Shown here: one piece after another, positions 914-61,660 of the stretch | Position numbering within the stretch: position 1 is the first letter of the stretch | Layout: the number at the start of each line of letters is the position of its first letter | IMG/VR virus record: IMGVR_UViG_3300035445_000156 | Span: 1 to 64,000 of that record | Reading direction: 5' to 3' (one strand) | Length of the DNA stretch: 64,000 nt | Source: an uncultured virus (IMG/VR IMGVR_UViG_3300035445_000156) | Lineage: Duplodnaviria > Heunggongvirae > Uroviricota > Caudoviricetes | Notes under the pieces: generated by a model | What the model saw: the letters and a program-made list of their open reading frames with translations, nothing else | Databases searched by the model: none | What the model was told of the DNA's origin: nothing | Translations under genes and position numbers: made by a program

Positions 914-935
914 GAGATAACACCGGTGTTATCTC
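914..935. repeat. 22-bp perfect palindrome GAGATAACACCGGTGTTATCTC, copy 1 (intergenic)
   Basis: Exact match, followed by GGACAAACC. Confidence 0.97.
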
Positions 936-962
936 AAGGACAAACCGAGCATCATCGCGCCC

Positions 963-1199
963 ATGGCCACGAAGAGAAACCCGGGCAAGTACGACTGCTA
1001 TGAGAACGCCGAGCCGGACGAGCCGCTGTTCGTGCTGCTCGCGTCGTCTCGCGTGTCGCTCCTTGCCATGTGCGCCGCGTTCCTCGGACTCCTCTGGCAC
1101 GCGCTGTTCAGGCGACCCTCCGACCCGGCCAAGGTGAGCGAGGCGGCGGACTGCGCGCGGGGGATGCGCGGGTGGCGCGCGACGTACCGCCCCGAGTGA
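963..1199 (+). CDS. Small conserved phage hypothetical protein
   Basis: N-terminus 'TKRNPGKYDCYENAEPDEPLFVLLA' resembles a common small phage protein family; CATCAT box 7 nt upstream. Confidence 0.7.
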   Translation: MATKRNPGKYDCYENAEPDEPLFVLLASSRVSLLAMCAAFLGLLWHALFRRPSDPAKVSEAADCARGMRGWRATYRPE

Positions 1200-1346
1200 C
1201 GAGGCGGAGCAGGGGGATGCGGCTCCGGTGCGCCGCGTGCGGGTGGCGCGGGCCCTGCGTATTCTGCGGCTTCTGCGCGCGGTGGTACTGCTCGCTCTGC
1301 GCGTGCTGACCGGCGTCCGGCGACCGCGCGGGATACCCTCCCGCGC

Positions 1347-3587
1347 ATGGGCGTAGGGTTCATCCGCAGGTACGGGTTCGACCCCGGAGTCGAGGAGCTC
1401 GCCAAGATCGAGGGCGTCGCGGTCATCGACCGCGAGCCGCCGCAGATCGTGACGGGGATCGGCACCGGGACGGTGTGCGTCGTGGGCGAGTTCGAGAACG
1501 GCCCCTTCGCGTTCGACGAGTCTCCCGGGGCGAGTCAGGGGCCGGTCGAGGTGTTCGGCTCGGGCGACGTGCTGAGCCGCTTCGGCGACCTCGGCTACGA
1601 GTACGCGGGCGTACCGAGCAACAACCCGTGCGCGCGCTCCCGGCTCGCGGACGGGGCGGTCGTCCCGGAGTACTGGAACGGCAACGGCGCTGTCGCGCTC
1701 GCGCGCAAGGCGTTCCGGCGCCTGCTGCTCGCGCGCGTCGACACGAGCGTCGGCGAGGTGACCTTCACGCGCCTGGCCTCGATCGTCGGCGGCGACGACT
1801 TCACGTTCGACCTGGAACCGGCTCAGGCGCTCGTCTTCGACGTCGGCGCCGGCAACGTGACGGCGACCTTCACGGCCGCGGCGGCGACGCTGAACAGCGC
1901 GGCCGGCACCTACCCGTCGACCTTCGCGGGCGGCGAGTCGATCACGTTCGCGCTCGACGGGACCGAGTACACGGCCGTCTTCCTCGCGGCCGACCAGACG
2001 CAGGCGCAGGTGATCGCCCGGATGAACCTCGCGGCCGGCTACGCCGCGTTCGTGGACGAGGGCGGCGCGGTCACGTCGATCAACGGCCGGATTCGGGGCA
2101 CGGACGGGAGCGTGCAGGTCGTCGCCGTGTCTGCGCTCATCGTCACGACGGCGACCGGCTTCGCGGCCGGCGCGGCGGTCCCCGGGACCGGCAACGTCGC
2201 GGATATTGACGCGGTGACCGTCGCGGAGGCGAACGCGATCGTCAACGCGGCCGACCCCGACACGTTCGTCGACCGCACCTCGTCGGGCAACGCGCGGATC
2301 TACACGGCGCAGCCCACGATCGTCCTCGACGCGACGACCGACGCGGACGCCTTCGGTTTCGCGGAGGGCGTGACCGCGGACGCGGAGGTCGGGACCGCCG
2401 GCTCCATCCCCGCCGGCACGCGCGTCTCGACGGGCGCGATCGACTTCGTGACGATGCGGGACCTCGCAGTCGCGGCCGACTCGTCGGGGCCCTACGCGGT
2501 CAAGGTCCGGCACGCGCTCGACGACGGGACGGGGCTCGGGGCGGGCGTCGCGACGGTGGACGTCGTCGGCGACTCGACCGGCGCGTTCCCGATCGCGCTC
2601 GGCGCCTTCTCCGTGACGAACCTCCTGCCGATCTCCGCGGCCCTGTCGGAGGCCGCGATCGACGCGCGGTACGTGCAGGCGGTCGGCAAGACGAAGAGCG
2701 TCCGCAACGTCGGCAAGGAGATCACGATCATCGCGAGCGCCCGGCAGAGCAACGTCGTCCGGAACGAGCTCCGGAGCAACGCGCTCGACGCCTCCGCGAA
2801 CGGCTGCTTCGGTCGGGTCGCGACGATCCGCCCGCCGCTCGGGACGACGACGCGCGCGCTCGCGCTCTCGACGACCTCGCAGCCGGGCGCGGTCGCGTAC
2901 CGGAGCGACCGCGTCGTCTACAACTTCCCGGGGGCCCGAGTCAACGTCCCGCGGATCGCGGCGCGCGGCCTCGACGGCGGCGCCGGCTTCACGGCGGACG
3001 GCAACCTCGACGTCGGCTCCGACGTGTGGTGCGCGTCCCTCATGAGCCAGCTCCCGCCGGAGGAGAACATCGGGCAGGCGACGTCCTTCCTGACCGGGAT
3101 CCTGGACATCGAGGCGGGCAACCCCGACGTGCAGGACCTGCAGATGGCCGACTACGTCGCGTTCAAGGCGGGCGGGATCTGCGCGCTCCGGATCGACGGC
3201 GGCGAGGCGTTCTTCCAGACCGAGGCGGCGGACGTGGACCCCGCGCTCTACCCCGCGCTCCGGACGATCAAGCGGCGGCGCATGTCGGACTTCATCCAGG
3301 ACAGCCTCGCGATCGCGGTCCTGCCGTTCGTGAAGAAGCTCGCGACCGTGCAGCGCCGCGCGCTCGTCGTGTCCGTCGTCGACACGTTCCTCCGGTCGCT
3401 CCTGTCGCCGGACAACCCGGACAACCAGCGCATCGCCGGCTACCGCGTGACGAACGCGAGCACGGCCGACGAGCTCAAGCGGGGGATCTTCCGGATCAAG
3501 ATCAAGGTGAAGCTCCTGCCGTCGCTCGACGTGATCGTCCTCGACACGACGATCGGCGAGACCGTAGAGTTCGAGGAGGCCGCGTGA
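1347..3587 (+). CDS. Contractile tail sheath protein
   Basis: 746 aa; N-terminal 'PGVEE...GTVCVVGEFENGP' and C-terminal 'RTIKRRRMSDFIQDSL...IAGYRV...IKVKLLPSLDVIVL' sheath-type motifs; followed by the tube gene. Confidence 0.92.
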   Translation: MGVGFIRRYGFDPGVEELAKIEGVAVIDREPPQIVTGIGTGTVCVVGEFENGPFAFDESPGASQGPVEVFGSGDVLSRFGDLGYEYAGVPSNNPCARSRLADGAVVPEYWNGNGAVALARKAFRRLLLARVDTSVGEVTFTRLASIVGGDDFTFDLEPAQALVFDVGAGNVTATFTAAAATLNSAAGTYPSTFAGGESITFALDGTEYTAVFLAADQTQAQVIARMNLAAGYAAFVDEGGAVTSINGRIRGTDGSVQVVAVSALIVTTATGFAAGAAVPGTGNVADIDAVTVAEANAIVNAADPDTFVDRTSSGNARIYTAQPTIVLDATTDADAFGFAEGVTADAEVGTAGSIPAGTRVSTGAIDFVTMRDLAVAADSSGPYAVKVRHALDDGTGLGAGVATVDVVGDSTGAFPIALGAFSVTNLLPISAALSEAAIDARYVQAVGKTKSVRNVGKEITIIASARQSNVVRNELRSNALDASANGCFGRVATIRPPLGTTTRALALSTTSQPGAVAYRSDRVVYNFPGARVNVPRIAARGLDGGAGFTADGNLDVGSDVWCASLMSQLPPEENIGQATSFLTGILDIEAGNPDVQDLQMADYVAFKAGGICALRIDGGEAFFQTEAADVDPALYPALRTIKRRRMSDFIQDSLAIAVLPFVKKLATVQRRALVVSVVDTFLRSLLSPDNPDNQRIAGYRVTNASTADELKRGIFRIKIKVKLLPSLDVIVLDTTIGETVEFEEAA

Positions 3588-3801: not shown

Positions 3802-4245
3802 ATGGCGGCGGATCCCAGGCTCAAGGGTCAAGAGGTCGTCCTGCGGATCCTGCAGGACGGGGCGCTCGTCGACGAGCTGCAGGCGATCGGGAGCTTCAAC
3901 GACGAGGTGACGCTGGAGATCAAGGAGGACGGCTTCCTCGGCGAGCCGGTCAACCGGGTCGACCAGATCCTGAACGGCTTCAAGGGCGACCTGGAGTTCC
4001 AGGTCAACTCCTCCGGCTGGTTGACCTTCGTCGACAGCGTGGTCGCGAAGGCGAAGCGCGAGGCGTTCCCGACCTTCAACGTCGTCCGGACCGACCTGTT
4101 CGTCAACGGCCAGACGGCCGTGATCACCTACGCGGACGTCGCGTGGGGCGCGATCCCGACGACGATCGGCGGCCGCGCCGAGTACGCGAAGGTCAAGCTC
4201 TCCTTCGCCTGCTCCGACCGGACGACGCAGGTCAACGCGATCTGA
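3802..4245 (+). CDS. Tail tube protein
   Basis: 147-aa beta-rich ORF between sheath and chaperone/tape measure. Confidence 0.85.
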   Translation: MAADPRLKGQEVVLRILQDGALVDELQAIGSFNDEVTLEIKEDGFLGEPVNRVDQILNGFKGDLEFQVNSSGWLTFVDSVVAKAKREAFPTFNVVRTDLFVNGQTAVITYADVAWGAIPTTIGGRAEYAKVKLSFACSDRTTQVNAI

Positions 4246-4250: not shown

Positions 4251-4272
4251 GAGATAACACCGGTGTTATCTC
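4251..4272. repeat. 22-bp palindrome, copy 2 (intergenic)
   Basis: Exact match. Confidence 0.97.
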
Positions 4273-8491: not shown

Positions 8492-8932
8492 TCAGGCGCC
8501 GAGACTCTGATCGGTCACCGTCGCGCGTTGCCGGTCGTGGATCTTCTCCCACGGGCCGCCCGCGCTGTCCACGTAGCCGACCCAAGCGACCGGGTCCTCG
8601 CCCGCTTGCTCGTACGCGAGCAGCCTGTGGTGTCCGTCGACGACCACGAGCCCGTCCCTCCCCGGCTCCTTCACGGCGACGATCGGCTTCGTCGGCCGGC
8701 CGCGCGCGATGTCGGCGGCGAACGAGTCGACCCTGTCGGGCTCGCGTTGCGCCCGCCACCCCTCGCGCCGGCCCATGTCGAACTGCCCGATCGGCACCGA
8801 GACCGGGCCGGACCAGCGGGTCGCGAGGACCCAGCCGAGGAGCGCCGGGTCGAAGTCCTCGAGGAGCTGCGAGTAGACGCGGCCGGCGTCCGGGTTCGCC
8901 CGCATGCGCGCCGCCCTCGCCAGCTCGTCCAT
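8492..8932 (-). CDS. ParB/Srx-like domain protein
   Basis: 'KPIVAV...VVVDGHHRLLAY' motif; TACAGT box 7 nt before the ATG. Confidence 0.75.
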   Translation of the reverse strand: MDELARAARMRANPDAGRVYSQLLEDFDPALLGWVLATRWSGPVSVPIGQFDMGRREGWRAQREPDRVDSFAADIARGRPTKPIVAVKEPGRDGLVVVDGHHRLLAYEQAGEDPVAWVGYVDSAGGPWEKIHDRQRATVTDQSLGA

Positions 8933-8950
8933 GACCGGCACTGTAGCGGG

Positions 8951-8991
8951 GAGATAAACGCCGGTGTTATCTCGGCGCCCGGTGTTATCTC
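8951..8991. repeat. Degenerate palindrome copy plus a duplicated right half-site
   Basis: GAGATAAACGCCGGTGTTATCTC at 8951-8973, then CCGGTGTTATCTC again at 8979-8991. Confidence 0.9.
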
Positions 8992-9025: not shown

Positions 9026-9607
9026 ATGAGCCCCCTCGCCGCGTACGTGTTCACCCTGGTCGTCTCGCTCGCCGCCGCCCCGTCCGTTGACCTGTCGGAC
9101 CGATCGGAGGTCGAGCGACTCCGGGCGACGTCGGAGGACGTCGCGGCGGTCGCGGCGGAGAAGGACGGCTACCCGTTCAGCGGCCCGGCCCGCGTCGAGG
9201 CGCTCGCGGTTGCCCTAGTCGTGCTCGCGAAGCACGAGAGCGACTTCTCCCGCCGGGTCGACACGTGCCGGCTCACGGGCGACCGGATGCCCTGGCACAG
9301 GCCGTGGGAGGGCTATTCGATCTCGCTCTGGCAGCTCCGCGCCGGTCGCGCGTGGGCGGGGCACACGCGCCGGCAGATCTGCACGGACCGGCGGCTCGCC
9401 GCCTCGCTCGCGGCGGACGTGCTCGCGCTCTACAAGAACAGCGGCTCGGTCGGCGGCCTNTTCCGCGGCTANGCGAGCGGCAACTCGGGCGTCGACTCGA
9501 AGGCCGCTCGCGTCAGGTGCGCCTCGTGGGAGAAGCACGCCCGCGCGGCGGGGATCACCGCGAGCTGCTGGAAGAGCGCTGACGTGTCATTCGTGCCGCG
9601 ACAGTGA
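9026..9607 (+). CDS. Lytic transglycosylase (lysozyme-like fold) with N-terminal signal sequence; possible secreted endolysin
   Basis: Hydrophobic N-terminus; catalytic-like 'HESDF' and 'SISLWQL' motifs. Confidence 0.7.
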   Translation: MSPLAAYVFTLVVSLAAAPSVDLSDRSEVERLRATSEDVAAVAAEKDGYPFSGPARVEALAVALVVLAKHESDFSRRVDTCRLTGDRMPWHRPWEGYSISLWQLRAGRAWAGHTRRQICTDRRLAASLAADVLALYKNSGSVGGXFRGXASGNSGVDSKAARVRCASWEKHARAAGITASCWKSADVSFVPRQ

Positions 9608-11015: not shown

Positions 11016-11329
11016 CGGGCGGATCCTCCGAGCATGCTCGGGTCTCGCCAGGCCGAGACCGTGAGGTCGCTCCTGACGGAGCCGGGAGATAACACCGGTG
11101 TTATCTCCGGAGGCAGGCAGTCGTTCCCGACACCGTGCGCGAGCATCCGGCGGACGTCGGCGCGCAGATCCTTCTTGCGCACGGGCACGTGGACCCCGTG
11201 GTCGCACCCGTTCGCGTCGATCGCGACGAAGAGGTAGTGCGCCCCGGAGCCCGTCTCGAAGACGCGGAACCGGCCGAGCGCGTTGCGGATCACCGCGACG
11301 TACTGTTTGACCTGCAATTCGGGTCTCAT
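11012..11329 (-). CDS. Hypothetical protein containing palindrome copy 3 in frame (EITPVLS)
   Basis: GGAGG SD; part of a minus-strand operon. Confidence 0.65.
   Translation of the reverse strand: MRPELQVKQYVAVIRNALGRFRVFETGSGAHYLFVAIDANGCDHGVHVPVRKKDLRADVRRMLAHGVGNDCLPPEITPVLSPGSVRSDLTVSAWRDPSMLGGSAR
11086..11107. repeat. 22-bp palindrome, copy 3 (intragenic)
   Basis: Exact match. Confidence 0.97.
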
Positions 11330-11705: not shown

Positions 11706-11742
11706 GACGCCCTCCGTCTGTCGTTCCCCGCTTCCGAAAGTC

Positions 11743-11771: not shown

Positions 11772-11833
11772 CAGGAATTGTGGAAAAGCCCGGGGCTCGG
11801 CCTACCGGGCTTCTCCCTCACGGTCGGACTCGC

Positions 11834-17457: not shown

Positions 17458-17751
17458 ATCGGATTCCCGCCTCCGCCCGACGCGCCGTCCCTCGCCGACC
17501 AGCAGTCGCTCTCACTGAGCGTCTCGCTCGCGCCGTCGCCGACGGGCCTCGAGATCTGCGGCTTCCAGATCCCGGGCTTCGAGTTCAACGTCACGTTCCG
17601 GCTCCCGGGCTTCCCGAGCTTCGACTTCCCGCCGCTCTTCTTCTTCGGGCTCGCGCTCAACTGCGACCTGAGCGACCCGATCTCGGCCGGGTTCGGCGGC
17701 GGCAGGTCGGGCACGTTCGGCCTCGAGGACGACGAGGAGTTCGGCGAGTAG
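17458..17751 (+). CDS. About 97-aa Pro/Phe/Gly-rich protein with no upstream ATG/GTG start (ATC start proposed)
   Basis: Strong coding codon bias; in-frame stop at 17431; GAGAGGG SD 7 nt before ATC; not in the ORF track. Confidence 0.6.
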   Translation: MGFPPPPDAPSLADQQSLSLSVSLAPSPTGLEICGFQIPGFEFNVTFRLPGFPSFDFPPLFFFGLALNCDLSDPISAGFGGGRSGTFGLEDDEEFGE

Positions 17752-17761
17752 GTTTGTCCCC

Positions 17762-17783
17762 GAGATAACACCGGTGTTATCTC
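17762..17783. repeat. 22-bp palindrome, copy 4 (intergenic)
   Basis: Exact match; GGTTTGTCCC on its left is the GGGACAAACC flank reversed. Confidence 0.97.
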
Positions 17784-23230: not shown

Positions 23231-23252
23231 GAGATAACACCGGTGTTATCTC
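23231..23252. repeat. 22-bp palindrome, copy 5 (intergenic)
   Basis: Exact match followed by CGGGACAAACC. Confidence 0.97.
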
Positions 23253-23458
23253 CGGGACAAACCAGGAGCGGGTGTCTCCAGTCGAGGCGATCGGATCCGA
23301 CAAGTCGACCGTGAGACGTGCTAGCGTGCCAGGGCGGCGGGCGGGCAATGGGATTCCAGATCAGAAGAGGGGAAGCAGGAGAGATCGTGGTCGATCCTCC
23401 GTTGCTCTTCTCCTTGAGGATCTGAGGAGATGTGCTTCGTTTTTTCGCTCGAAGCGCA

Positions 23459-23478
23459 GAGATAACCGGCGTTATCTC
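23459..23478. repeat. Degenerate palindrome GAGATAACCGGCGTTATCTC
   Basis: Both 8-bp outer arms intact, centre 2 bp shorter. Confidence 0.88.
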
Positions 23479-25050: not shown

Positions 25051-25562
25051 GGGTCCGCGAGGAGCCGGGAGATAACACCGGTGTTATCTCCGAGGCGTCG
25101 AGCGCGCTCGACGCCTTCGTGCGGGGTGCGCGGGTGTCCCGGAAGCGGCCCGCCAACGGCAGCGCTAAGGGGATGATCGACCGGGCGCGCGGGGAGCTCG
25201 ACGGGCTGGCGGAGGGCGGGTGGGAGCGCGCCCTCCCCCGGCACCTGGTCGCGCTCTACGCCCGGCTGCACGAGGAGGTCTACGGGGTCGCGCCGGCTGA
25301 CGTCGAGCAGCGCCGGGCGTTCCTCGCGGCGTGCTCTGCCGCGGGCAAGCTCCTGCGGGAGGAGTTCGGCGGCGAGGGCCGGGCGGCGATCGAGTTCATG
25401 CGCTGGGCGTGGCGCCGGGAGCGCGCCGGGGTGCGCCGCCGACACGCGCGCGGCGAGAGCTCCGACTGGCGCGTGACGTGGCAGCAGCAGTTCGTCTCCC
25501 GGCGGCTGCTCACGGACTACCGGGTGTGGCTGCGCCGGGAAGGGCAAGGAGGAGCGCTTTGA
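25047..25562 (+). CDS. Hypothetical protein with palindrome copy 6 in frame (GDNTGVISE)
   Basis: GTGA overlap with the helicase stop; GAGG SD. Confidence 0.7.
   Translation: MRVREEPGDNTGVISEASSALDAFVRGARVSRKRPANGSAKGMIDRARGELDGLAEGGWERALPRHLVALYARLHEEVYGVAPADVEQRRAFLAACSAAGKLLREEFGGEGRAAIEFMRWAWRRERAGVRRRHARGESSDWRVTWQQQFVSRRLLTDYRVWLRREGQGGAL
25069..25090. repeat. 22-bp palindrome, copy 6 (intragenic)
   Basis: Exact match. Confidence 0.97.
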
Positions 25563-32990: not shown

Positions 32991-35336
32991 GTGATCCTCC
33001 GCTCCGCGAGACGACCCGCCTCGGCGCCGCCCGCGCCGGAGATCGTCAACGCCTACTGGGACAGGGACTCGCTCTTCGTCGTCGAGCGCCGCGGCTCGGC
33101 CGTCTCGACGCGCCGGGAGCGGGCGCGACACTGCTGCTTCCTCCGGCGCTCGGAGGTCGACGCCGGGCTCGAGCGGGAGCTGCGCGCGAGCCGGCACGTC
33201 GCAGGCGTGCGCGAGGAGGGGGCGCACCTGCGCGTCTCGTGGCGCGAGCGCTGGGCGTGCCTGCAGGCAAGCCGGACAGACGGGTTCTTCGCCGCGCGCG
33301 GGGTGACCGTCCTCGAGGCGGACGTCGACCCGGTGCGCCGGTGGATCACTGACGAGCAGGTCCAGGTCGCGAGGCCGCGCCGCTGCTACCTGGACATCGA
33401 GGCCGACAGCCGCGAGCGGGACCGGGAGCGCGCCCGGATGCTCGCCTGGTCGGTCGCGGTCGACGGCGGCGAGGTCGTCGCGAGCGCGGTCCTCGCGGAG
33501 GAGACCGACGCGGCCGAGCGGGTCCTCGTCGAGGCGCTCTGGCGCGCGCTCGACGCCTACGACCAGGTGTGCGCGTGGGCCGGCGACTTCTTCGACTTCC
33601 CGCACCTGTTCGGGCGCACGAAGCGGCGGCGGGTCCCGGTCGAGACGCGACGTTGGTTGTGGCTCGACCAGCTCAAGGTGTTCCAGAAGATGAACGTCAG
33701 CGCGAGCGAGAGCGGCGACGAGAAGCAGTCGCTCAAGCTCGGGAGCGTCGCGAGGAAGCTCGTCGGCGAGGACAAGCTCGAGGGCGACGGCTCGATGTCG
33801 TGGGAGCTCTGGCTCGCGGACCCCGAGCGGCTGCGGCGCTACTGCGCGAACGACGCGCGCCTGCTCGCACTGATCGAGGGCGCGACCGGCTACGTCGAGC
33901 TGCTCCTGAGTCTCTGCCAGTGCTCCTTCACGTTCCCGGACACGGGCGGCGTCCGGCCGACGCGGCAGGTCGAGGGCTTCCTCCTGCGCCTCGGCGCCGA
34001 GCGCGACCACCGCTTCCCGACGTTCCACTACGCGGAGGAGAGCGGCGAGGAGGAGCAGTTCAAGGGCGCGTACGTGATGGACCCGACGCGCACCGGGATC
34101 GTGCGGGACGTGCACGTGTGCGACTTCGCCCGCCTCTACCCGAACGTCATGCGCACGTTCAACCTCTCGCCCGAGACGGTGCGGGGGCGGGGAGATAACA
34201 CCGGTGTTATCTCCGAGGGCCACTGCCGCGTCCCCCTGACGAACGTGCTCGTCGCGAACGAGCCGCGCGGGATCCTGCCGATCGCGCTCGACGAGCTGCT
34301 CGCGCTCCGGAAAAAGTGGGACGACGTCAAGGCCGCCCTGCCGCCCGGCTCGCCCGAGTGGAAGGACGCGGACCGGCGGTCGACCGCGTACAAGAACTCG
34401 ATCAACGCCTTCTACGGCGTGACCGGCTCGCGCTTCTCGCGCTTCTACGTGCTCGACGTGGCCGAGTCGACCGCGCAGGGCGGCGTGTGGCTCATCCAGG
34501 AGACGATCGCCGCCGCGCGCGAGCGGGGACTGGAGATCTTCTACTGCGACACGGACAGCGGATTCGAGGGCAGCGGCGCGACGGACGAGGAGTTCCTCGC
34601 GTTCGTGCGGTGGTGCAACGCGGAGCTCTACCCGCGGCTCGTGCGCGAGCGGGGCGCGACGCGCAACCACATCGAGCTCGCCTACGAGAAGAAGTTCCGT
34701 CGGCTCGTGCTCGTCGCGAAGAAGCGCTACGCCGGCCGCTACGCGCACTTCAAGGGCAAGCAAGCGCGGGACGGCGCGAAGTTCGAGGTGAAGGGTCTCG
34801 AGTACAAGCGCGGCGACGCGGTCCGGCTCGCGCGCGAGCTGCAGATGCGCGCGATCGAGATGCTGCTGCGCGAGGAGTGCGAGGACCCTGCAGCGTACGA
34901 ACGCCTCGTCGAGTCGTTCAAGGAGCGGGTCCTGAAGGGCGATCTCTCGCTCGAGGACGTCTTCCTGTCGAAGCGCTTGACGAAGCCGCTCGGCGAGTAC
35001 GCGCGCAAGCGGAAGCAGGACGGCGAGTGGGCGAAGCAGAGCGTGCACGTCGAGGTCGCGCGCGTCCTGAAGGAGCGCGGCGAGCGCGTCGAGAAGGGCG
35101 CGAAGATCGACTTCGTGATGGTCGAGGGCCCGGCCGGAGAGCCGGCGGCGATCCCCGCGGCCGACTACGCGGGCGAGTGCGACCGCTACCACCTGTGGGA
35201 GCAGCTCGTCTACCCGCCGACGCTGCGCGTGCTCGAGGCCGCGTTCCCGTCGGGCCGGTGGGAACGGTGGGAGCGCCTCACCCGGCCGGTCGCGAGGAAC
35301 GGGCAAGTCCGCTTCGACTTCATGCTCGCGACTTGA
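32991..35336 (+). CDS. polB: Family B DNA polymerase with proofreading exonuclease
   Basis: ExoI DIE, ExoII FDF, ExoIII YCAND; motifs DFARLYPN, KNSINAFYG, YCDTDS, KKRY; start set at the GTG 7 nt after CATACT. Confidence 0.95.
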   Translation: MILRSARRPASAPPAPEIVNAYWDRDSLFVVERRGSAVSTRRERARHCCFLRRSEVDAGLERELRASRHVAGVREEGAHLRVSWRERWACLQASRTDGFFAARGVTVLEADVDPVRRWITDEQVQVARPRRCYLDIEADSRERDRERARMLAWSVAVDGGEVVASAVLAEETDAAERVLVEALWRALDAYDQVCAWAGDFFDFPHLFGRTKRRRVPVETRRWLWLDQLKVFQKMNVSASESGDEKQSLKLGSVARKLVGEDKLEGDGSMSWELWLADPERLRRYCANDARLLALIEGATGYVELLLSLCQCSFTFPDTGGVRPTRQVEGFLLRLGAERDHRFPTFHYAEESGEEEQFKGAYVMDPTRTGIVRDVHVCDFARLYPNVMRTFNLSPETVRGRGDNTGVISEGHCRVPLTNVLVANEPRGILPIALDELLALRKKWDDVKAALPPGSPEWKDADRRSTAYKNSINAFYGVTGSRFSRFYVLDVAESTAQGGVWLIQETIAAARERGLEIFYCDTDSGFEGSGATDEEFLAFVRWCNAELYPRLVRERGATRNHIELAYEKKFRRLVLVAKKRYAGRYAHFKGKQARDGAKFEVKGLEYKRGDAVRLARELQMRAIEMLLREECEDPAAYERLVESFKERVLKGDLSLEDVFLSKRLTKPLGEYARKRKQDGEWAKQSVHVEVARVLKERGERVEKGAKIDFVMVEGPAGEPAAIPAADYAGECDRYHLWEQLVYPPTLRVLEAAFPSGRWERWERLTRPVARNGQVRFDFMLAT
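34192..34213. repeat. 22-bp palindrome, copy 7 (in frame inside polB)
   Basis: Exact match; reads GDNTGVISE. Confidence 0.97.
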
Positions 35337-40941: not shown

Positions 40942-42882
40942 GTGCGAGTCGCCCGGATCACGCTGCGCAACTGGCTCACGTTCCGCGGGACGCACTCGGT
41001 CGACCTCGGCCCGGGGGTCTACGGGGTCGTCGCGCGGCTCGAGGCGGACGCGGGCCGGAGCAACTGGCTCGGCAAGTCGTCCTTCCTCGCCGCGACCCGG
41101 TTTGCGCTCTACGGCTCGTTCAAGCACCTCGGGTGCGAGCGGGAGGGCGACTGGATCTCGCGCGGGGAGGCGGAGGGCGGCGTCCGGGTCGAGCTCGACG
41201 ACGGGACGGTCGTGGACCGCAGGCGGGGCAGGGGCGCGACGGAGCTGTCGTGCCGGGTCGCGGGCGTGACGAGCAAGGGCGACCGGGCGGCGGAGCTGCT
41301 CGTCCGGCACGTCGGCCTCGGGGAGGACGACTTCTGCACGGTCGCCTACTTCGAGCAGAAGCGGCTCGCGCGGCTCGTCTCGCAGGCGATGCGCCCCGGC
41401 GAGCGGCAGGAGATCGTCTCGGAGTGGCTCGCGCTCGGCCCGCTGCGGCTCGCGGCGGAGCGGGAGGGCAAGGCGCTCGCGGCGCTCCGGGCGCGGGAGG
41501 AGAAGCTCGTCGCCTCGCGGGAGACGCTCGCGCGGTTCGCCGGGGGACATGGGCCTACGGAGGAGGAAGTCGCGCGGGCGAGGGGGGAGGCGGCGGCCGC
41601 GGGGAAGCGGGTCGAGTCCCTCGCGGCGGCGCACGTCGACGCGCTTCGGCGAGAGGCCGAAGCGGAGGCGGCGGCGGAGGACGACAGGACGCGCGCGTAC
41701 CTGCGGGAGGAGANCGCGCGGCGGGAGAAGGAGGACGCGGCGGGGGAACTGCGGGTCATCGCGGGGGTGCTGCCGGTCGTGCGGGAGCGGGCGCGCGAGG
41801 CGGCCGGCGCGGCGAAGCTCGCCGCGGCCGAGACGACGACGCGGCGGCGGGTCGCGAGCGGGAAGTTCGACGGGATGTGCCCGATCGCCACGCNCGCGTG
41901 CCCGGCGGTGGTGCAGATCAACGCGGACCGCGACGCGAACGCGGCGGCGCTCGCGGCCGCGGAGAAGCGGGAGAAGGCGGCGGCGAGGGAGGACGAGCGC
42001 TCCTCGCGCGAGCTGCGGGAGGTCGAGGCGAGGGACAGGGAGGCGCGGGAGCGCGCGACCCGGCTCGCGTCGATGCGGGAGCGGCTCGCCTCGATGGACG
42101 AGGCGGCGGCCCGAAGAGATAACACCGGTGTTATCTCCGAGGCGTCGAGCGCGATCTCCGAGCGACTGAGCGAGGCGCGGCGCGCGGACCGCGAGGTGGC
42201 GGCGCGGGCGGGCGAGCTGGCGCGGGAGAGGGAGGCGGCGCTGCGGGTCGAGCGGGAGCTCGCGGGGATCGACGCGGAGCTCGCGCGGGTCCGGGCGGAG
42301 GCGGCGACGAGCCGGGAGGCGCTGGCGGTCCTCGGGCGGCACGGGGCGCAGCGGCGGCTCGCGCGCGACGCGCTCGGGCGGGTACAGGAGCGGGCGAACG
42401 AGCGGCTCGCGCGGGCGGAGATCGGCCTCTCCCTNTCGTTCGAGTGGGGCCGGGAGACGGCGCAGCCCGCGGCCGAGTGCGACGCGTGCGGCCTCCCGTT
42501 CCCCGCGAGCGCCAAGGTGAAGGAGTGCGCGTGCGGTGCCGAGCGCGGCAGGCGGGTCGAGGACGGCCTGTGGGTCCGGTTATCGGACCGGTCAGGCGCG
42601 GCGGAGGACCTCGCCGGCTTCGAGCTCGGGGTCGCGGCGGGCGAGTGGCTCCGGGAGGAGCGGGGCGCGGCGTGGGGGACGCTCTTCGCGGACGAGCCGT
42701 TCGGCGCGCTCGACGCGAGCCACCGGCGGGCGCTCGCGGGGAGTCTCGGCCGGCTGCTCTCGCGCGAGCACGGGGGCTACGAGCAGGCGCTCGTCGTCGC
42801 GCACCACCCGGGACTGATGGACGGGCTCCCCGGGCTCGTGCGCATCGTGAGCGACGGGCGGAGCAGCCGGTTTGAAGCTTGA
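40942..42882 (+). CDS. sbcC: SbcC/Rad50/gp46 SMC-like ATPase
   Basis: SNWLGKSS; coiled coils; central 'CPI' hook-like motif; RSGA signature; FADEPFGALD; H-loop. Confidence 0.9.
   Translation: MRVARITLRNWLTFRGTHSVDLGPGVYGVVARLEADAGRSNWLGKSSFLAATRFALYGSFKHLGCEREGDWISRGEAEGGVRVELDDGTVVDRRRGRGATELSCRVAGVTSKGDRAAELLVRHVGLGEDDFCTVAYFEQKRLARLVSQAMRPGERQEIVSEWLALGPLRLAAEREGKALAALRAREEKLVASRETLARFAGGHGPTEEEVARARGEAAAAGKRVESLAAAHVDALRREAEAEAAAEDDRTRAYLREEXARREKEDAAGELRVIAGVLPVVRERAREAAGAAKLAAAETTTRRRVASGKFDGMCPIATXACPAVVQINADRDANAAALAAAEKREKAAAREDERSSRELREVEARDREARERATRLASMRERLASMDEAAARRDNTGVISEASSAISERLSEARRADREVAARAGELAREREAALRVERELAGIDAELARVRAEAATSREALAVLGRHGAQRRLARDALGRVQERANERLARAEIGLSXSFEWGRETAQPAAECDACGLPFPASAKVKECACGAERGRRVEDGLWVRLSDRSGAAEDLAGFELGVAAGEWLREERGAAWGTLFADEPFGALDASHRRALAGSLGRLLSREHGGYEQALVVAHHPGLMDGLPGLVRIVSDGRSSRFEA
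42116..42137. repeat. 22-bp palindrome, copy 8 (in frame in the sbcC coiled coil)
   Basis: Exact match; reads RDNTGVISE. Confidence 0.97.
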
Positions 42883-45003: not shown

Positions 45004-45644
45004 GGCGCGCGGAGAAGAGACGACGAGATAACACCGGTGTTATCTCCGGGACAAACCGACTCGTCGGCACGGTGCCGGAGATCGTCCCGATCGCCGGCCT
45101 GAGCAAGAACCCGTGGAACCCGACCGCGATCACGGGGGAGGAGCGCGACAGGATCCGACACGGGTTCAAGACGGACGGGTGGCTCGTCGCGCAGGCGCTG
45201 CTCGTGTGGCGCGCGGACGAGCGGGGGCGGGTCAGGAACGTCATCATTGACGGGGAGCAGCGCTTCACCGTCGCGGACGAGTTGGGGATGACCGAGGGGC
45301 CCGTCTCGTTCCTCGACGGGATCACGGAGGCCGCGGCGCGTCGACTCACAGTGAAGCTCAACGCGAGGCGAGCGGGCGGCGGTTCGTTCGATCCCGCGAA
45401 GTTCGCGGCGAACGTCGTTTCGATCGGGGAGGTCGATCTCGGGGACGTCTCACACGCGCTCGACTTGGGACTCGACGATCGGGCGTTCGCCCGACTCACC
45501 GGCGCGGCGGAACGCGCGCCGGACCAGACCGAGCGCGCGCGGGTCGGGTTCGTCGTCCTCGTCGACTGCGACGACGAGACCCATCAGCTCGCTATTATCG
45601 AGGACCTGATGTCGAGGGGATACCGGTGCCGCGCGTTGACCTGA
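45000..45644 (+). CDS. ParB-like N-terminal domain protein 2 (paralog; contains palindrome copy 9)
   Basis: KNPWNPT; IIDGEQR; C-terminal 'VLVDCDDETHQ...GYRCR'. Confidence 0.85.
   Translation: MRRAEKRRRDNTGVISGTNRLVGTVPEIVPIAGLSKNPWNPTAITGEERDRIRHGFKTDGWLVAQALLVWRADERGRVRNVIIDGEQRFTVADELGMTEGPVSFLDGITEAAARRLTVKLNARRAGGGSFDPAKFAANVVSIGEVDLGDVSHALDLGLDDRAFARLTGAAERAPDQTERARVGFVVLVDCDDETHQLAIIEDLMSRGYRCRALT
45025..45046. repeat. 22-bp palindrome, copy 9 (in frame in parB-like gene 2)
   Basis: Exact match followed by CGGGACAAACC. Confidence 0.97.
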
Positions 45645-49847: not shown

Positions 49848-49869
49848 GAGATAACACCGGTGTTATCTC
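49848..49869. repeat. 22-bp palindrome, copy 10 (intergenic)
   Basis: Exact match followed by GGACAAACC. Confidence 0.97.
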
Positions 49870-49896
49870 CCCGGACAAACCGGCATCCTCCGCGCG

Positions 49897-54377: not shown

Positions 54378-54399
54378 GAGATAACACCGGTGTTATCTC
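54378..54399. repeat. 22-bp palindrome, copy 11 (intergenic)
   Basis: Exact match followed by CGGGACAAACC. Confidence 0.97.
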
Positions 54400-54424
54400 C
54401 GGGACAAACCAGAGGGAGAAGGAC

Positions 54425-55466: not shown

Positions 55467-55683
55467 AAGTTCTGGCGGGGCGCGTCCCCCGGAGGGCATC
55501 CGGCCCGGATACCGGGGCGGGTTTCTCGATATCCGCAATCCGCAATCCGCGCGCAAGGCGACGAAAGGGGCCGAGTTCCCGGCATCGGGGCCGGGCCGGC
55601 TCGCTCGCGCCTCTCCCCCTCGCGTGAAAGACATTGCGCGCGGGGACCGGAGCCGCCGAGAGTCTCGGAGAAGGGAGCGGGCG

Positions 55684-56157
55684 ATGGGTTTCACGGTAGG
55701 GATCGTCAAGCCGCGCGCGACGCGGCACCTCGGGAGAATCCTCGAGGTGCTGACGCGCGGCGGATTCGTCATCGACGAGGTGCGGGTGCTGGAGTTGACG
55801 GACGAGGAAGCGCGCGAGTTCTACGCGGAGCACGCGGGGAAGCCGTTCTTCGACGAGCACGTCGCGTTCATGACGAGCGAGCCCGTCGTTTTCCTCGTGC
55901 TCTCGATGCCAGCGCTCGACAACTCAGGCGAGCTGTCCGTCAAGACGCTGCGGAAGTTGCTCGGGGACACGGACCCGAAGAAGGCGGCCCCGTTCACGAT
56001 CAGGTGCCGGTTCGGCAGCAACGAGCTCCCGGACAACGCGATGCACGGCTCCTCGGACCCGGACGCGGCGGTCCGGGAATTCAAGTTGTTCCGTCGCTTC
56101 TGCGAATCGCGCGGTGACCGTTCTCTAGGAGTCCTCCGAGACGGGGAATCCGGGTGA
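55684..56157 (+). CDS. ndk: Nucleoside diphosphate kinase
   Basis: IVKP; FYAEHAGKPFF; G.TDP...TIR; NAMHGS. Confidence 0.95.
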   Translation: MGFTVGIVKPRATRHLGRILEVLTRGGFVIDEVRVLELTDEEAREFYAEHAGKPFFDEHVAFMTSEPVVFLVLSMPALDNSGELSVKTLRKLLGDTDPKKAAPFTIRCRFGSNELPDNAMHGSSDPDAAVREFKLFRRFCESRGDRSLGVLRDGESG

Positions 56158-56828
56158 TCCTCGGGGACGCGGAGATCCGGCGGGCGCTCGACGCGGGCGA
56201 GATCGCGGTCGATCCCATGGCGCCGTGGGCGCTCGGGACGAACTCGATCGACCTCCACCTGGCGCCGTCGCTGCGCGTCTACGCCGACGTCGTGCTCCGG
56301 ACCGACCGGGACTGCCCGACGCGCGAGGTCCCGATCCCGCCCGGCGTCGGCGTGTGCCTGAGCCCGGGCGAGCTCTACCTCGCCTCGACCGTCGAGCGCA
56401 CGAGGAGCGGGCCCTACCTGCCGGTCATCGACGGGACGAGCGGCGCGGGCCGGCTCGGGATCAGCGTGCACCAGACGGCGGGGATCGGCGATGTCGGCTT
56501 CGAGGGGCACTGGACTCTCGAGCTCGCGGTCGTGCGACCGGTGCGCGTGTTCGGGGGAGAGCCGATCGCGCAGCTCCGGTTCTTCGAGGTCGCGGGTCGC
56601 GTGCTCGTGCCGTACGGGGAGAAGGAGACGGCGAGCTACGCGGACGCGAGGGAGAGCGGGCCGGTCCCGCGCGGCTCGCGGATGTGGCGCAAGAGGCGGT
56701 GGACGGGTGCCCCGAAGTGCGACTCGTGCGGCGGGACGAGCTTCCGTCAGTCGGACACGAGCGACCCGGGGTCGCCCGGTGCGTCGGGTGCGGGACGGTT
56801 CGGTGCGTGTGGAAGGGAGAAGATGTGA
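56154..56828 (+). CDS. dcd: dCTP deaminase
   Basis: NSIDLHL; GTSGAGRLGISVHQTAG.GDVGFEGHWTLEL. Confidence 0.93.
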   Translation: MILGDAEIRRALDAGEIAVDPMAPWALGTNSIDLHLAPSLRVYADVVLRTDRDCPTREVPIPPGVGVCLSPGELYLASTVERTRSGPYLPVIDGTSGAGRLGISVHQTAGIGDVGFEGHWTLELAVVRPVRVFGGEPIAQLRFFEVAGRVLVPYGEKETASYADARESGPVPRGSRMWRKRRWTGAPKCDSCGGTSFRQSDTSDPGSPGASGAGRFGACGREKM

Positions 56829-57646
56829 ACAAGGAAGAAGCGAACACAGCCTACGGACGCGCGGGAGAGGTGAGCAGGGTTGAGCTGCTCGATCACGGGT
56901 ACGTCGAGCTCGTCGAGACATGGGGGAGCGACGAGCGGATCGTCGAGGCGGCGCGGATGTCGACGGGGAAGAGGTTCCTCGGTTGGGGCGAACGCTGCCG
57001 ATCTTGCGGTTACCCGAAAGAGTGCGGCGACCATGAGGTGGGTTGCGCGGCGGATCCCGGACTCGCCGCGTCGTGGGTGCCCGGAGACGAACGGCTCCTC
57101 CGATTCCTGTGGGAGAACAAGCACGCGACCCCGTTCGAGATGGCGGGCGCGACGATCGAAGTGCAGGCGCCGATCATGGTGTTCCGCGAGTGGCACCGAC
57201 ACCGCACGCAGAGCTACAACGAGATGAGCGCGCGGTACGCGCCGTTGCCGGCTGTCGACTACCTGCCGACGGTCGAACGGGTCCTGATGGTCGACCCGAA
57301 AAATCATCAGGCGCAGGCGCTCGCGGGCAGTGAGAAGATCACGATGGAGTCGGCGCTGGAGTGGCTCGCTGAACTCGCCGACCTCTACGAGCACTGCGAG
57401 CGCGTTTATCAGAGCGGGCTGCGCCGCGGCGTGCCGAAGGAGCTTGCGCGACTCGCTGTGACGGTCGGGCGCTATTCGCGCATGCGCGCGAGCGGCAACC
57501 TGCGGAACTGGCTCGGCTTTCTGTCGCTCCGCATGCCGTCGAACGCCCAATTGGAGATCCGCTCGTACGCGACGGCCGCGCATGACCGCTTTTTCGTGCC
57601 CGCGTTCCCCCGGACGCTCGCGCTCTTCGACGAGAGGCGGGCGTGA
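56825..57646 (+). CDS. thyX: FAD-dependent thymidylate synthase
   Basis: HATPFE; REWHRHR...SYNEMSARY; LR...AQLEIR. Confidence 0.95.
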   Translation: MNKEEANTAYGRAGEVSRVELLDHGYVELVETWGSDERIVEAARMSTGKRFLGWGERCRSCGYPKECGDHEVGCAADPGLAASWVPGDERLLRFLWENKHATPFEMAGATIEVQAPIMVFREWHRHRTQSYNEMSARYAPLPAVDYLPTVERVLMVDPKNHQAQALAGSEKITMESALEWLAELADLYEHCERVYQSGLRRGVPKELARLAVTVGRYSRMRASGNLRNWLGFLSLRMPSNAQLEIRSYATAAHDRFFVPAFPRTLALFDERRA

Positions 57647-57972
57647 GCGGGCAGAAGAAGGACGGCGGCAAGGAACGCTGGGACCTGCTGCCGCACGACG
57701 CGCTCCGGGAGGTCGCGCGGGTGATGTCCTCGGTCCTCGTCGAGAACGGCGGCAAGTACGAGCCGCGCAATTGGGAGAAGGGGATCGCGGCGAGTCGCCT
57801 CTACGCGGCGGCCATGCAGCACCTGACCTCGTGGTGGACGGGTGAGGACCTCGACCCGGAGACCGGTCTGCACCACCTCGCGCACGCTGCGTGCTGCGTC
57901 CTGTTCATGCTGGCGCTGGCCAGGCGCAGTCACAAGCACGACGACCGACCGATGAGCGAGCGGCTCCCCTGA
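57643..57972 (+). CDS. dATP/dGTP diphosphohydrolase (DUF5664-type)
   Basis: KDGGKERWDLLP...KY..RNWEKG...DPETGLHHLAHAACC. Confidence 0.88.
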   Translation: MSGQKKDGGKERWDLLPHDALREVARVMSSVLVENGGKYEPRNWEKGIAASRLYAAAMQHLTSWWTGEDLDPETGLHHLAHAACCVLFMLALARRSHKHDDRPMSERLP

Positions 57973-60141: not shown

Positions 60142-60563
60142 GCGGGGTGACACTGAAGAAGTCCCCGTCCCGGATCAAGAACGCCGCGACGTTCGGGGCC
60201 GGTAACCTGACAACCGGCACGACCACGCGGTACCTGCCGTACGGCTACGTGTCTGGAAACGCTCCAACAACGCCGCAGGACGTAAAGCTCGTCGCTCCCG
60301 AAGTGATCGACACGATCGGCGTCCACATAAATAGCGCAGGCGCTGATGCGACCGACTCAGTGACATTCACGCTCCGCAAGAACGGTGCGCCCACAGCTCT
60401 CGCGCTCGTGATCAGTCCCCTGAACGGCACTGTCGACGCGTCTACGACGGGCGCACCGGTGACCTTTGCGCCGGGCGATACCTGGGGTATGCAGAACGAC
60501 AAGAGCGGCACCCTCACAACCGCGCCGATGGACGTCTACGTCACGATAGGGAGAACGACATGA
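60138..60563 (+). CDS. Beta-rich structural protein
   Basis: ATGA overlap; Thr/Gly-rich. Confidence 0.6.
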   Translation: MSGVTLKKSPSRIKNAATFGAGNLTTGTTTRYLPYGYVSGNAPTTPQDVKLVAPEVIDTIGVHINSAGADATDSVTFTLRKNGAPTALALVISPLNGTVDASTTGAPVTFAPGDTWGMQNDKSGTLTTAPMDVYVTIGRTT

Positions 60564-60952
60564 GTCTGAGCGTCGAACAATTCCAACACAGTGCTCTTAC
60601 CGAGGACGCGTCGGCCATCAGCCCGACCGCGTGGACCGACGTGCTCGTCGTCGAGGTCGACAGCTTCGGTGACACGAGGCTCGACATCGTCGGCACGCCG
60701 ATCTTGGGGTGCACGATCGGCGGCGGCTACAGGTTGTTGATCGACGGTGGCGGATTCTCGAGCGAGATCCTCGTCGATGAGATCTCGCTCGAGCTCCTCT
60801 CCCGCAAGGCGTACCGCACCCAGGCGGTCGTCGTGCTGCCGGGCAGCGACGAGGTGACCTACACGGTGAAGCTGCAGGCACGAGCGACCATTCTCGGAAG
60901 CGTCACGCCGCGCGCGGGCTCCGTGCTGCGCGTCCTCGAAGTTTCCAACTAG
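60560..60952 (+). CDS. Beta-rich structural protein
   Basis: ATGA overlap; 'YTVKLQAR...LRVLEV' fibre-type C-terminus. Confidence 0.6.
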   Translation: MSLSVEQFQHSALTEDASAISPTAWTDVLVVEVDSFGDTRLDIVGTPILGCTIGGGYRLLIDGGGFSSEILVDEISLELLSRKAYRTQAVVVLPGSDEVTYTVKLQARATILGSVTPRAGSVLRVLEVSN

Positions 60953-61012
60953 CTCTTCGTCTTCGAGTTCGCCGGATAATCCCGGACGTCGACCCGCATC
61001 ATCGCGGGCGAC

Positions 61013-61660
61013 ATGGCGAGCGAGAACCGAGATCGACGACAGGCCGAGGTCGCGAGGTGGGCGGCCGAGTGCTTCGGGCGAGAGCAGGCGACGTCCCTGC
61101 CGCAGCGGGGGATTCGTCTCCTCGAGGAGGCGGTCGAGCTCGCGCAGGCGGCGGGCTGCGAACGGGCGATGGCGCTCGCGTTGGTCGACTATGTGTTCTC
61201 GCGGCCCGTCGGGGAGCTCGGCCGCGAGATCGGCGGGGTGAGCACGACGTTGCTCGCGCTCGCCGAGGCCGCCGGGACGAGCGCGGACGAAGAGGAGGCG
61301 CGCGAGGTCGCTCGCGTCCTGGCCGCGCCCCGGGAGCACTTCGCGGCCCGCAACGCCGCGAAGAACGCGGCCGGCTTCCTGGCGGCCGGGGGAGATAACA
61401 TCTCCCGGGACGCGAGGGACGGCGAAGCGAGAGACCTGACTTTCTGCGCGAACGCGGTCGAGAGCGTCGCGGGTGAGCTGGAGTCGCAGGCGCGGGAGAT
61501 CGACCGGGTACCCCACCTCTACGCCCGCGAGGCGGCAGCGGCGCTGAAGATACAGGCGGGGTTGCTACGGGCGCTCGTGCCGTCGATCCGCGAAGTGAAC
61601 GCCGAGATCGAGGACTTCTTCGCTCGTTGGGGGCGCTCGATCGCATCATCGGGCGCATGA
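61013..61660 (+). CDS. MazG-like all-alpha NTP pyrophosphohydrolase with C-terminal extension
   Basis: 'RLLEEAVELAQA...REIGGV' acidic motif pattern. Confidence 0.6.
   Translation: MASENRDRRQAEVARWAAECFGREQATSLPQRGIRLLEEAVELAQAAGCERAMALALVDYVFSRPVGELGREIGGVSTTLLALAEAAGTSADEEEAREVARVLAAPREHFAARNAAKNAAGFLAAGGDNISRDARDGEARDLTFCANAVESVAGELESQAREIDRVPHLYAREAAAALKIQAGLLRALVPSIREVNAEIEDFFARWGRSIASSGA
61391..61405. repeat. Internally deleted palindrome remnant GGAGATAACATCTCC
   Basis: Left arm plus right end with 9 bp missing, so the frame is preserved. Confidence 0.7.

Follow-up and report, generated by a model that had tools for sequence, protein, structure and literature searches.

A lineage-specific palindrome evenly dispersed over the genome of an uncultured myovirus, a possible docking site for a symmetric DNA-binding factor

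Results and discussion

The dispersed palindrome and its copies

The first 64,000 nucleotides of the uncultured virus record IMGVR_UViG_3300035445_000156 (Caudoviricetes), which are the whole stretch of DNA analysed and are referred to here as the window, contain 11 exact copies of a 22-bp perfect palindrome, GAGATAACACCGGTGTTATCTC, starting at 914, 4251, 11086, 17762, 23231, 25069, 34192, 42116, 45025, 49848 and 54378. Related viruses carry dispersed palindromes of their own, and we tentatively favour the view that these are docking sites for a two-fold-symmetric, lineage-specific DNA-binding factor that would organise or regulate the whole genome, the sites doubling as recombination hotspots. 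The complete record is 91,281 bp long, and its coordinates coincide with those of the window. An exact direct repeat of 2,887 bp at its ends (1-2887 = 88395-91281) may represent true terminal redundancy, since it is longer than a k-mer overlap would give; when it is discounted, the unique length of the record is 88,394 bp. The G+C content is 67-76% in 2-kb windows. Scans of ca. 100 open reading frames (ORFs) of the record with Pfam and PHROGs recognised myovirus genes (tail sheath, baseplate J, major head protein, large terminase), replication genes (family-B polymerase, DnaB-like and other helicases, primase), recombination genes (a UvsX-like recombinase, SbcCD-like and RuvC-like nucleases) and three ParB-like proteins, and detected no integrase, repressor, ParA or phage RNA polymerase. 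Judged from these matches, its genes are those of a lytic myovirus that encodes a replication apparatus of its own.

All eleven copies lie where the original prediction had placed them, none of 100 dinucleotide-preserving shuffles contained a match to the 22-mer, and the window holds no copies with one to three mismatches. Extending the count to the full record gave 16 copies, 15 of them unique in the 88,394 bp: those beyond the window start at 65367, 68252, 73453 and 82995, and the 914 copy, being within the terminal repeat, recurs at 89308. The palindrome is, as had been noted, an AT-rich site in a GC-rich genome (45% G+C). A search with the 10-base arm rendered 28 matches against 0.78 expected and exposed relics that retain the 8-bp outer arms; the three degenerate copies previously reported at 8951, 23459 and 61391 are all genuine relics. 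In 10 of the 15 copies an extension, GGACAAACC (once GGACAAGCC), stands 2-3 nt from one arm, on the right in nine copies and inverted on the left in one, and the genome has only three other exact occurrences of this 9-mer, two plus-strand and one minus-strand. Compared by eye with the left arm, as a possible third half-site, 6 of 10 bases of the extension match.

The copies are not an assembly artefact, a possibility that the original prediction had raised. The 49848 copy is bridged by contigs of two runs, one from the source run and one from an independent run (X4), and the identical 22-mer is present in six metagenome contigs of a close relative, hereafter R. X2 contigs start within two of the copies (49848 and 54378), and at the other copies short-word contigs break, as they do at repeats. 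The exact 22-mer is absent from viral_contigs and from 185,579 species genomes. The sites in the window are the following:

914..946: exact palindrome followed by the extension (AA-GGACAAACC), between the divergent leaderless starts 895(-) and 963(+), inside the terminal repeat.
4251..4272: exact palindrome with no extension, 5 nt past the stop of gene 3802-4245.
8951..8991: relic directly upstream of both the ParB-like gene 8492-8941(-) and gene 9026-9607(+), made up of 23 bp with one substitution and one insertion (8951..8973) and a lone right half-site 18 bp further on (8982-8991); R has an exact copy here (L067).
11086..11107: exact palindrome, past gene 9680-10888 or in a weak minus-strand ORF, 11012-11329, reading EITPVLS.
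17751..17783: exact palindrome (from 17762) with the extension inverted on its left (GGTTTGTCCCC), position kept in R; to the right follow a -10-like hexamer, TACTCT, and the leaderless GTG start 17803.
23231..23263: exact palindrome with CGGGACAAACC, 3 nt from the start of 22865-23227(-).
23459..23478: 20-bp relic that has lost 2 bp from its centre and retains both outer arms; a CATGAT -10 follows 13 nt downstream, then the helicase gene with its leaderless start at 23506.
25069..25106: exact palindrome and 16-nt native right flank, in the poorly modelled N-terminal tail of core gene 25047-25562, reading GDNTGVIS.
34192..34213 (+): exact palindrome in the family-B DNA polymerase gene, just past motif A, where GDNTGVIS replaces an equal-length loop of the orthologues.
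42116..42153 (+): exact palindrome in the SbcC-like gene, reading DNTGVISEASSA; palindrome and 16 nt identical to 25069-25106.
45025..45057: exact palindrome with CGGGACAAACC, between two tandem ParB-like genes.
49848..49881: exact palindrome with CCC-GGACAAACC, then a CATCCT -10 and the leaderless start of an XPD-type helicase at 49897.
54378..54410: exact palindrome with CGGGACAAACC; a CATCAT hexamer 3 nt upstream, a Shine-Dalgarno sequence and ATG (54425) downstream.
61391..61412: collapsed relic, with the outer arms and the beginning of the flanking motif retained at 61391-61405; the arms GAGAT/ATCTC flank AAC, and CCGGGAC follows.

Related viruses carry palindromes of their own

A scan with a terminase profile rendered 48 related viral loci at 33-46% identity, and at least 19 of them contain an exact dispersed palindrome of their own. 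The same holds for six of the seven relatives available as whole records, with 8-30 copies each (30 in G001, 26 in G002, 17 in G003, 17 in G010, 14 in G011 and 8 in G013); no dispersed palindrome was found in the seventh, G004, which is 97% complete. Among the loci, L043 has 18 copies of CCGCAAACCGGTTTGCGG within 17.8 kb, L020 a palindrome of 30 bp and L018 one of 22 bp. When the commonest 11-mers were counted with no requirement for symmetry, they formed centre-perfect palindromes in all families but one, and symmetry that extends through the centre fits recognition of the duplex by a dimer, unlike an RNA loop. The palindromes are family-wide in kind and lineage-specific in sequence. The family-wide trait had been overlooked in the original prediction, as had the translation of copies in frame, the one-sided extension in 10 of 15 copies and the behaviour of copies as mosaic breakpoints.

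Conservation within the lineage is strict. Aligned segments of R are mostly 78-86% identical to the record (range 67-94%), and in the orthologous copies at 914, 17762 and 49848 all 66 of 66 palindrome bases are unchanged, for which the chance probability is 4e-7 at 80% identity.

Position, spacing and promoters

Genes were called with our own codon-bias caller. Over the seven palindrome-bearing genomes, this one included, 95 of 127 copies lie outside gene interiors, against ca. 15% expected, and 32 lie more than 25 nt inside a called gene, against 84-86% expected. Many copies start 0-9 nt past a stop codon, with 10-40 nt left between their end and the following start, and such copies, hugging the stop codon, are frequent in G001, G002 and G010. 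Others are located in divergent regions (914, 23231 and 49848 here, two in G002, one in G003), so that divergent promoter regions also host copies, at sites where no transcript ends. Placement is shared between genomes: copies are found upstream of the orthologous helicase in four genomes despite their differing palindromes, the position of the 23459 relic being orthologous to those in G002 and G003, and copies precede the orthologues of 9680, 13018, 17803 and 31813 in three genomes each.

Copies occur at a density of one per 3-10 kb, with a coefficient of variation of the spacing of 0.36-0.57. In six of the seven genomes the spacing is more regular than that of gene junctions picked at random in equal number (p from <0.0001 to 0.012; p=0.09 in G013). 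The three copies deep in long genes are not significant as gap-fillers, since 48 of 455 three-copy drops do equally well.

More than 25 starts in this genome have the form GCATCATCC, 4-5 nt, then ATG/GTG, with a -10-like hexamer 6-8 nt before the start codon, which points to leaderless transcripts; examples are 895(-), 963, 29221, 35356, 38973, 48420, 51849 and 63822, and 66564, 68093 and 75514 further along the record. Related -10 motifs are found family-wide (GCGGCATAAGG in G002, GGCAT[AT]A in G001, GGCATGAT in G003) despite G+C contents of 53-71%. The original prediction had most intergenic copies within 2-15 bp of a -10 box, which turns out to be true of three exact copies and one relic only: a palindrome or relic lies at most 15 nt upstream of a -10 at just five starts, 895(-), 963, 17803, 49897 and 23506, and more than 25 similar promoters here lack one. 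In G002 the palindrome lies 6-14 nt upstream at 7 of 23 promoter motifs, and in G001 10 of 38 motifs have one, six upstream and four downstream. Where a -10 is adjacent, the palindrome stands 0-15 nt upstream or 3-11 nt downstream of it, and this variable distance suits an operator, not an activator of fixed geometry. As far as the motifs allow us to judge, therefore, the palindrome would not be part of the promoter, yet it often lies where a bound protein would meet RNA polymerase.

The palindrome does not have the features of an intrinsic terminator: its stem is 45% G+C, and the 15 right flanks begin CGG, CGA, CCC, CCG or AAG, with no T-run in any. At G002:8684 the palindrome is immediately followed by a canonical GC-rich hairpin with a T-run, and the 25069 copy by one (25091-25120) that is GC-rich and has no clear T-run, so that at these two places the palindrome itself is unlikely to be the terminator.

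Two further observations concern the promoters of the record. The core protein encoded by 31121-31816 (+) matches sigma-70 region 2 (Pfam E 4e-3 to 5e-9 across four orthologues, two above the curated cut-off), all nine weak matches of its profile to the PDB are sigma factors, and the phage family seems to bring its own sigma-like factor. A promoter for a T7- or N4-type phage RNA polymerase was considered and dropped, as the family scans found no such polymerase and a sigma-like factor is encoded instead. There is also a second repeat family, of ca. 55 nt around a 19-bp palindrome, CTAGGACATGATGTCCTAG (CATGAT in both directions), at 11725-11779, 12913-12967 and 49784-49838; all three repeats are at minus-strand or divergent gene starts, and one is 10 nt from the 49848 copy.

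Mosaic junctions and copies within genes

Homology between this genome and its close relatives breaks exactly at a copy in seven of seven comparisons, six with R contigs and one with a protein. The genes 734-895(-) and 48931-49779(-) are missing from R, which has ca. 310 extra nt to the left of the 17762 copy. Past its baseplate J gene R has a palindrome and ca. 440 nt, neither of which is present here, and downstream of its terminase gene it has a palindrome and ca. 1.3 kb of other DNA, the palindrome here being inside the terminase gene. The 8.0-9.0 kb segment with the ParB-like gene corresponds in R to 411 nt with an exact copy. The protein, 93% identical to the product of 68093-68653, is unrelated to it before the palindrome-encoded peptide and nearly identical after. 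Breaks are also found away from copies (L066 487-749, L071 327-541), so the association of breakpoints with palindromes appears from these alignments to be strong, not exclusive. In one source-run contig, 45063 and 49842 are joined on opposite strands, across two copies, which may equally be an assembly-graph effect of a palindromic repeat.

One reading frame of the palindrome contains a stop, and the other two read EITPVLS or DNTGVIS. Copies are in frame in the genes for the terminase (in a hypervariable loop), the family-B polymerase and the SbcC-like protein, in 25047-25562, 68093-68653 and 73377-73709, and perhaps in the weak ORF 11012-11329. The copy in the SbcC-like gene shares with that at 25069 both the palindrome and 16 bases native to the latter, which indicates that the site was copied together with its flank. 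At 914 and 49848 the extension is a 12-13-nt insertion between palindrome and -10 relative to R. The extension shows that information is exchanged between the copies of a lineage.

Candidate binding proteins

Several genes of the record might encode a protein that binds the palindrome:

44407-45003 (+) and 45072-45644 (+): tandem paralogous genes with a ParB/Noc/KorB-type CTPase N-domain, candidate binders.
8492-8941(-): third ParB-like gene (DGHHR-type), candidate binder or nuclease.
31813-32973 (+): zinc ribbon, lysine-rich linker and helix-turn-helix (HTH)-like segment, candidate binder.
29221-29481: HTH protein, candidate binder.
68093-68653: family with a weak sigma-like profile, a lead only.

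In a profile search against the PDB, the N-terminal ca. 100 residues of the ParB-like proteins match Noc (1.3e-13) and Spo0J and ParB (1e-9 to 1e-11), and fold comparison gave Z of 10-11.7 and rmsd of 1.9-3.5 A over 92-124 residues. The proteins are short (149-198 aa) and only this N-domain matches confidently: beyond residue 102, where an HTH DNA-binding domain would be expected, only KorB and pNOB8 ParB align, to residues 136-143, and pLDDT in that part is 45-80. Homologues were found in 8 of 10 further records searched, and two members of the subfamily adjoin methyltransferase genes; excerpts of PMC12704722 describe such ParB folds as common in phages and often joined to methyltransferases. 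In two of the seven genomes, this one (three of three genes) and G001, the ParB-like genes adjoin a copy or relic. The tandem genes are a duplication (44478-44799 and 45065-45386, 71-75% nucleotide identity, 587-nt period), with the palindrome at the joint. The proposal that ParB-like proteins bind the sites thus retains the CTPase N-domain and the adjacency in this genome, and loses synteny, absent in five of the seven genomes; in addition, G004 keeps such a gene. On the strength of fold and position we consider it possible, and on balance doubtful, that a ParB-fold protein is the binder.

The 31813-32973 protein is a core protein, shared by all eight genomes, and the palindrome lies just upstream of the orthologue in three of them. 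Its HTH was read by eye on the alignment, in which the putative recognition helix varies between genomes, as do the first helix positions; no relative was found in the PDB. The 68093-68653 family is missing from the palindrome-free G004 and also from the palindrome-bearing G003; its profile matches only sigma region 4 chains (E 0.9-1.7), and it rendered no Pfam family and no informative Atlas neighbour. The core gene 25047-25562 was set aside as a source of the binder, no fold match being found at E <= 0.001. The wider claim of the original prediction, that a dimeric phage protein binds all the sites, gains from the lineage-specific palindromes, the even spacing and the invariance of the 22-mer against flanks that have diverged by ca. 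20%.

Possible roles of the palindromes

According to the explanation that we tentatively favour, the palindrome would be a cis-acting site on double-stranded DNA at which one symmetric, sequence-specific factor docks, most likely a factor encoded by the phage. From evenly spaced sites at the edges of transcription units, the bound factor would reach the whole chromosome, and it could act as a global operator or roadblock, or the sites could load a spreading or sliding protein in the manner of KorB at OB or Noc at NBS. All the sites of a lineage would change sequence jointly and their specificity would co-evolve with the factor, as is implied by the fact that each lineage changed all its sites together. 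Recombination would start and end at the sites, because these are the longest identical tracts between diverged relatives, an argument also made in excerpts of papers on the T4-type stem-loops known as PeSLs (PMC2839356, PMC4122927) and on the Cluster O repeats (PMC4351075); sites and flanks would be copied to new places and become the junctions of gene swaps. Observed here are the repeat with its conservation, placement and spacing, its family-wide pattern and the mosaic junctions; protein binding, the protein concerned and its effect are inferred. A symmetric factor that reads the duplex is the best reading, since it explains the invariance, the central symmetry, the lineage-wide change, the junctions, the spacing and the variable distance to promoters, and thereby more of the data than the alternatives do. 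A more specific form of this proposal, in which a family of ca. 90-kb myoviruses keeps evenly spaced loading sites for a phage-encoded symmetric clamp or coat, possibly of the ParB-CTPase fold, that would cover or silence the chromosome, with protein and sites re-tuned lineage by lineage and the sites serving as linkers for module exchange, even when translated within genes, seems to us rather unlikely.

Several observations weigh against a docking site. All 22 bp are invariant, the centre included, which exceeds the requirement of most operators. ORFs contain about 7 of the 15 copies here and 25% of all copies, and the starts given by our gene caller are approximate. The extension is one-sided, occurs in 10 of 15 copies and is absent from the six contigs of R. 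The lineage of L058, L045 and L044 has a fixed one-base asymmetry, with 9 of 10 L058 copies in the same orientation, something unexpected if the reading is purely two-fold; from copies so oriented, the sense-strand RNA would carry a C-A mismatch, and the antisense strand would give G-U. A ParB-fold clamp is plausible as the binder, yet it has no support from synteny in five of the seven genomes: the ParB-like gene is 1.4-3 kb from the nearest copy in G002, G003, G010, G011 and G013. The palindrome-free G004 retains both a ParB-like gene and a 31813-type protein. Finally, the transfer of a copy with its flank and the mosaic junctions in seven of seven comparisons fit a recombination-driven element equally well.

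It can also be the case, with a probability that we consider low, that the copies are cassettes like the PeSLs, in which the palindrome, folded as a stem-loop in RNA transcripts or in single-stranded DNA, would attenuate or terminate the transcription arriving from upstream, ahead of a promoter or ribosome site, gene conversion keeping the copies identical while the modules are shuffled. The copies close behind stop codons in G001, G002 and G010 and shortly before the next start would be expected of such cassettes, as would the alternation of promoters and palindromes along the replication region of G002, the breaks at copies in all seven comparisons, the predicted RNA hairpins of -7.5 to -15 kcal/mol and the variable position of the stem-loop relative to the -10, a feature of PeSLs according to excerpts of PMC2839356. 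However, no T-run follows the palindrome, copies lie in divergent regions, and a further GC-rich hairpin is found behind the palindrome at 25091-25120 and at G002:8684, the latter with a T-run. Nearly all families have a perfectly symmetric centre, no base of the sequence varies, the sense strand of the asymmetric lineage has a C-A mismatch in 9 of 10 copies, and even spacing is not predicted. Somewhat less probable still is a selfish palindrome that spreads by copy-and-paste or gene conversion and is tolerated where it leaves genes unbroken, with no function for the phage. That copies are in frame in at least six genes, using only the two stop-free frames, would suit such an element, and the recurrence in the SbcC-like gene of the 25069 palindrome with 16 nt of native flank, the extension at sites where R lacks it and the varying presence of copies between close relatives (L068, L069) are likewise compatible with it. 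Against this, the copies are neither clustered nor random in spacing, junctions are conserved across deeply diverged genomes with different palindromes, the bias to gene edges is strong, and in the polymerase gene the palindrome replaces an equal-length loop rather than inserting. The family scans found no transposase, RAYT or shared nuclease gene beside copies; the accessory genes there have no similarity to one another and include no nuclease family, unlike an association of the REP/REPIN type. Spacing and conserved junctions thus weaken this explanation.

The same junctions and spacing could be produced by entry sites for a nuclease, at which a nick or break at evenly placed palindromes would start recombination-dependent replication or resolve concatemers. 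The phage encodes a UvsX-like recombinase, SbcCD-like and RuvC-like nucleases and DGHHR ParB-like proteins of nuclease type, the extension is co-converted as a flanking marker would be, and the contig joining 45063 to 49842 on opposite strands, if it is not an assembly-graph effect, would agree with breakage. None of the nucleases, however, is linked to a site, we know of no nuclease-entry system that uses palindromes of such kind, and we regard this explanation as improbable. A plasmid-type partition centromere of a phage-plasmid (parS- or sopC-like) is the least credible of all and very improbable. Palindromic sites and ParB-fold proteins are indeed present, but neither a partition ATPase (ParA or other) nor an integrase or repressor came up in the scans of ca. 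100 ORFs, the sites are dispersed rather than clustered, and, as noted above, the genes are those of a lytic myovirus equipped for its own replication. Partition, one of the roles put forward in the original prediction, is therefore unsupported in its plasmid-type form.

Comparison with known dispersed sites

Dispersed sites of this kind are already known, as Cluster O repeats, PeSLs, stoperators and KorB sites. Known ParB-family sites are contiguous perfect palindromes, and those of the KorB/Noc type measure 13-16 bp. The likeness to KorB at OB in RK2 and to Noc at NBS lies in identical contiguous palindromes every few kb, some just upstream of promoters and others far from them, and in a ParB-fold protein encoded by the element itself. 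In contrast, the site described here has 22 bp, the ParB-like proteins are short, no partners resembling KorA or IncC were found, and gene and site are syntenic in two of seven genomes only. KorB has been described as a sliding clamp that depends on CTP and exerts silencing over a distance (excerpts of PMC11790492).

Cluster O mycobacteriophages carry more than 30 invariant 17-bp dyad-symmetric sites per genome, inter- and intragenic, for which the authors suggest a dimeric regulator and assign no function, and recombination between sites explains indels among relatives, as stated in excerpts of PMC4351075. The palindromes studied here resemble these in being invariant inverted repeats with many copies between and within genes, a likeness in kind, the sequences being unrelated. 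The Cluster O sites have a 3-bp variable centre and one cluster-wide sequence, whereas ours are centre-perfect, lineage-specific and evenly spaced. With the T4-type PeSLs, intergenic stem-loops of variable position near promoters (excerpts of PMC2839356 and PMC4122927), they share a location at junctions of gene gain, loss or replacement. PeSLs are sigma-70 composites, with stem-loops of varying sequence in hyperplastic clusters; here, in contrast, one exact palindrome is spread at even intervals over core modules, and most promoters lack it. Cluster A stoperators are also numerous, genome-wide and found in transcribed regions, where they act as repressor roadblocks according to excerpts of PMC9283540 and PMC6550527. 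They are asymmetric, oriented with transcription and bound by the monomeric immunity repressor of temperate phages, whereas the site here is a perfect palindrome and neither repressor nor integrase was found. In the literature that we consulted, we found no report of a palindrome that is specific to each lineage and held throughout a deep family of uncultured phages, evenly spaced, embedded in frame and acting as a breakpoint.

Other features of the record

Megablast gave no match to 20 kb of sequence, no close cultured relative was found, and a polymerase-based locus search rendered no close relatives. The best tblastn matches of the family-B polymerase (gene 32991-35336), covering 54-58% of the protein at 23-27% identity, come from haloarchaeal tailed viruses; an archaeal virus was nevertheless dropped as a reading in view of the arginine-rich proteins and the bacterial-type replication genes. 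Homologues of the terminase are metagenomic proteins, many on contigs of ca. 90 kb. A terminase scan of genomes rendered five contigs of metagenome-assembled genomes, and no host is proposed because their phylum labels are discordant. No tRNA was detected, and no Rfam family reached its gathering score.

A nucleotide-metabolism cluster at 55624-57972 comprises NDK, a dCTP-deaminase-like protein and a dATP/dGTP diphosphohydrolase N-domain (E 7e-30), and 75792-76190 of the record is a deoxyribosyltransferase-like DUF7768 gene. On the basis of these genes, among which no PurZ-like gene was recognised, the phage DNA may contain modified bases. Beyond the window, 67014-68072 (-) encodes an ethylene-receptor-like N-terminal domain with a STAS domain and seems to be an accessory gene of host origin. 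A few N or masked bases at ca. 32.9 kb and at 36981-37008 appear as X in translations.

Among the relatives, G013 contains six repeats of ca. 36 nt, 72-77 nt apart with ca. 37-41 nt between copies (L063 4139-4560), a geometry like that of a small CRISPR-like array or an iteron set. Close ahead of gene starts, the palindrome-free G004 (L092-L096, ca. 26.5-38 kb) instead carries a non-palindromic motif, GGTTTCGGTTTATGG ... CGACAACGAGG, in about six copies, probably a promoter class.

Conclusions

A few phage groups were already known to contain dispersed exact palindromes, for which no function has been assigned. Three results narrow the options here: a palindrome that changes with the lineage and keeps its placement, an even spacing, and breakpoints that delimit whole genes or protein segments. 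The family also constitutes a comparative data set on the joint change of specificity in a protein and all of its sites. If the binder were a ParB-fold clamp, long-range control of the KorB type would extend to lytic phages.

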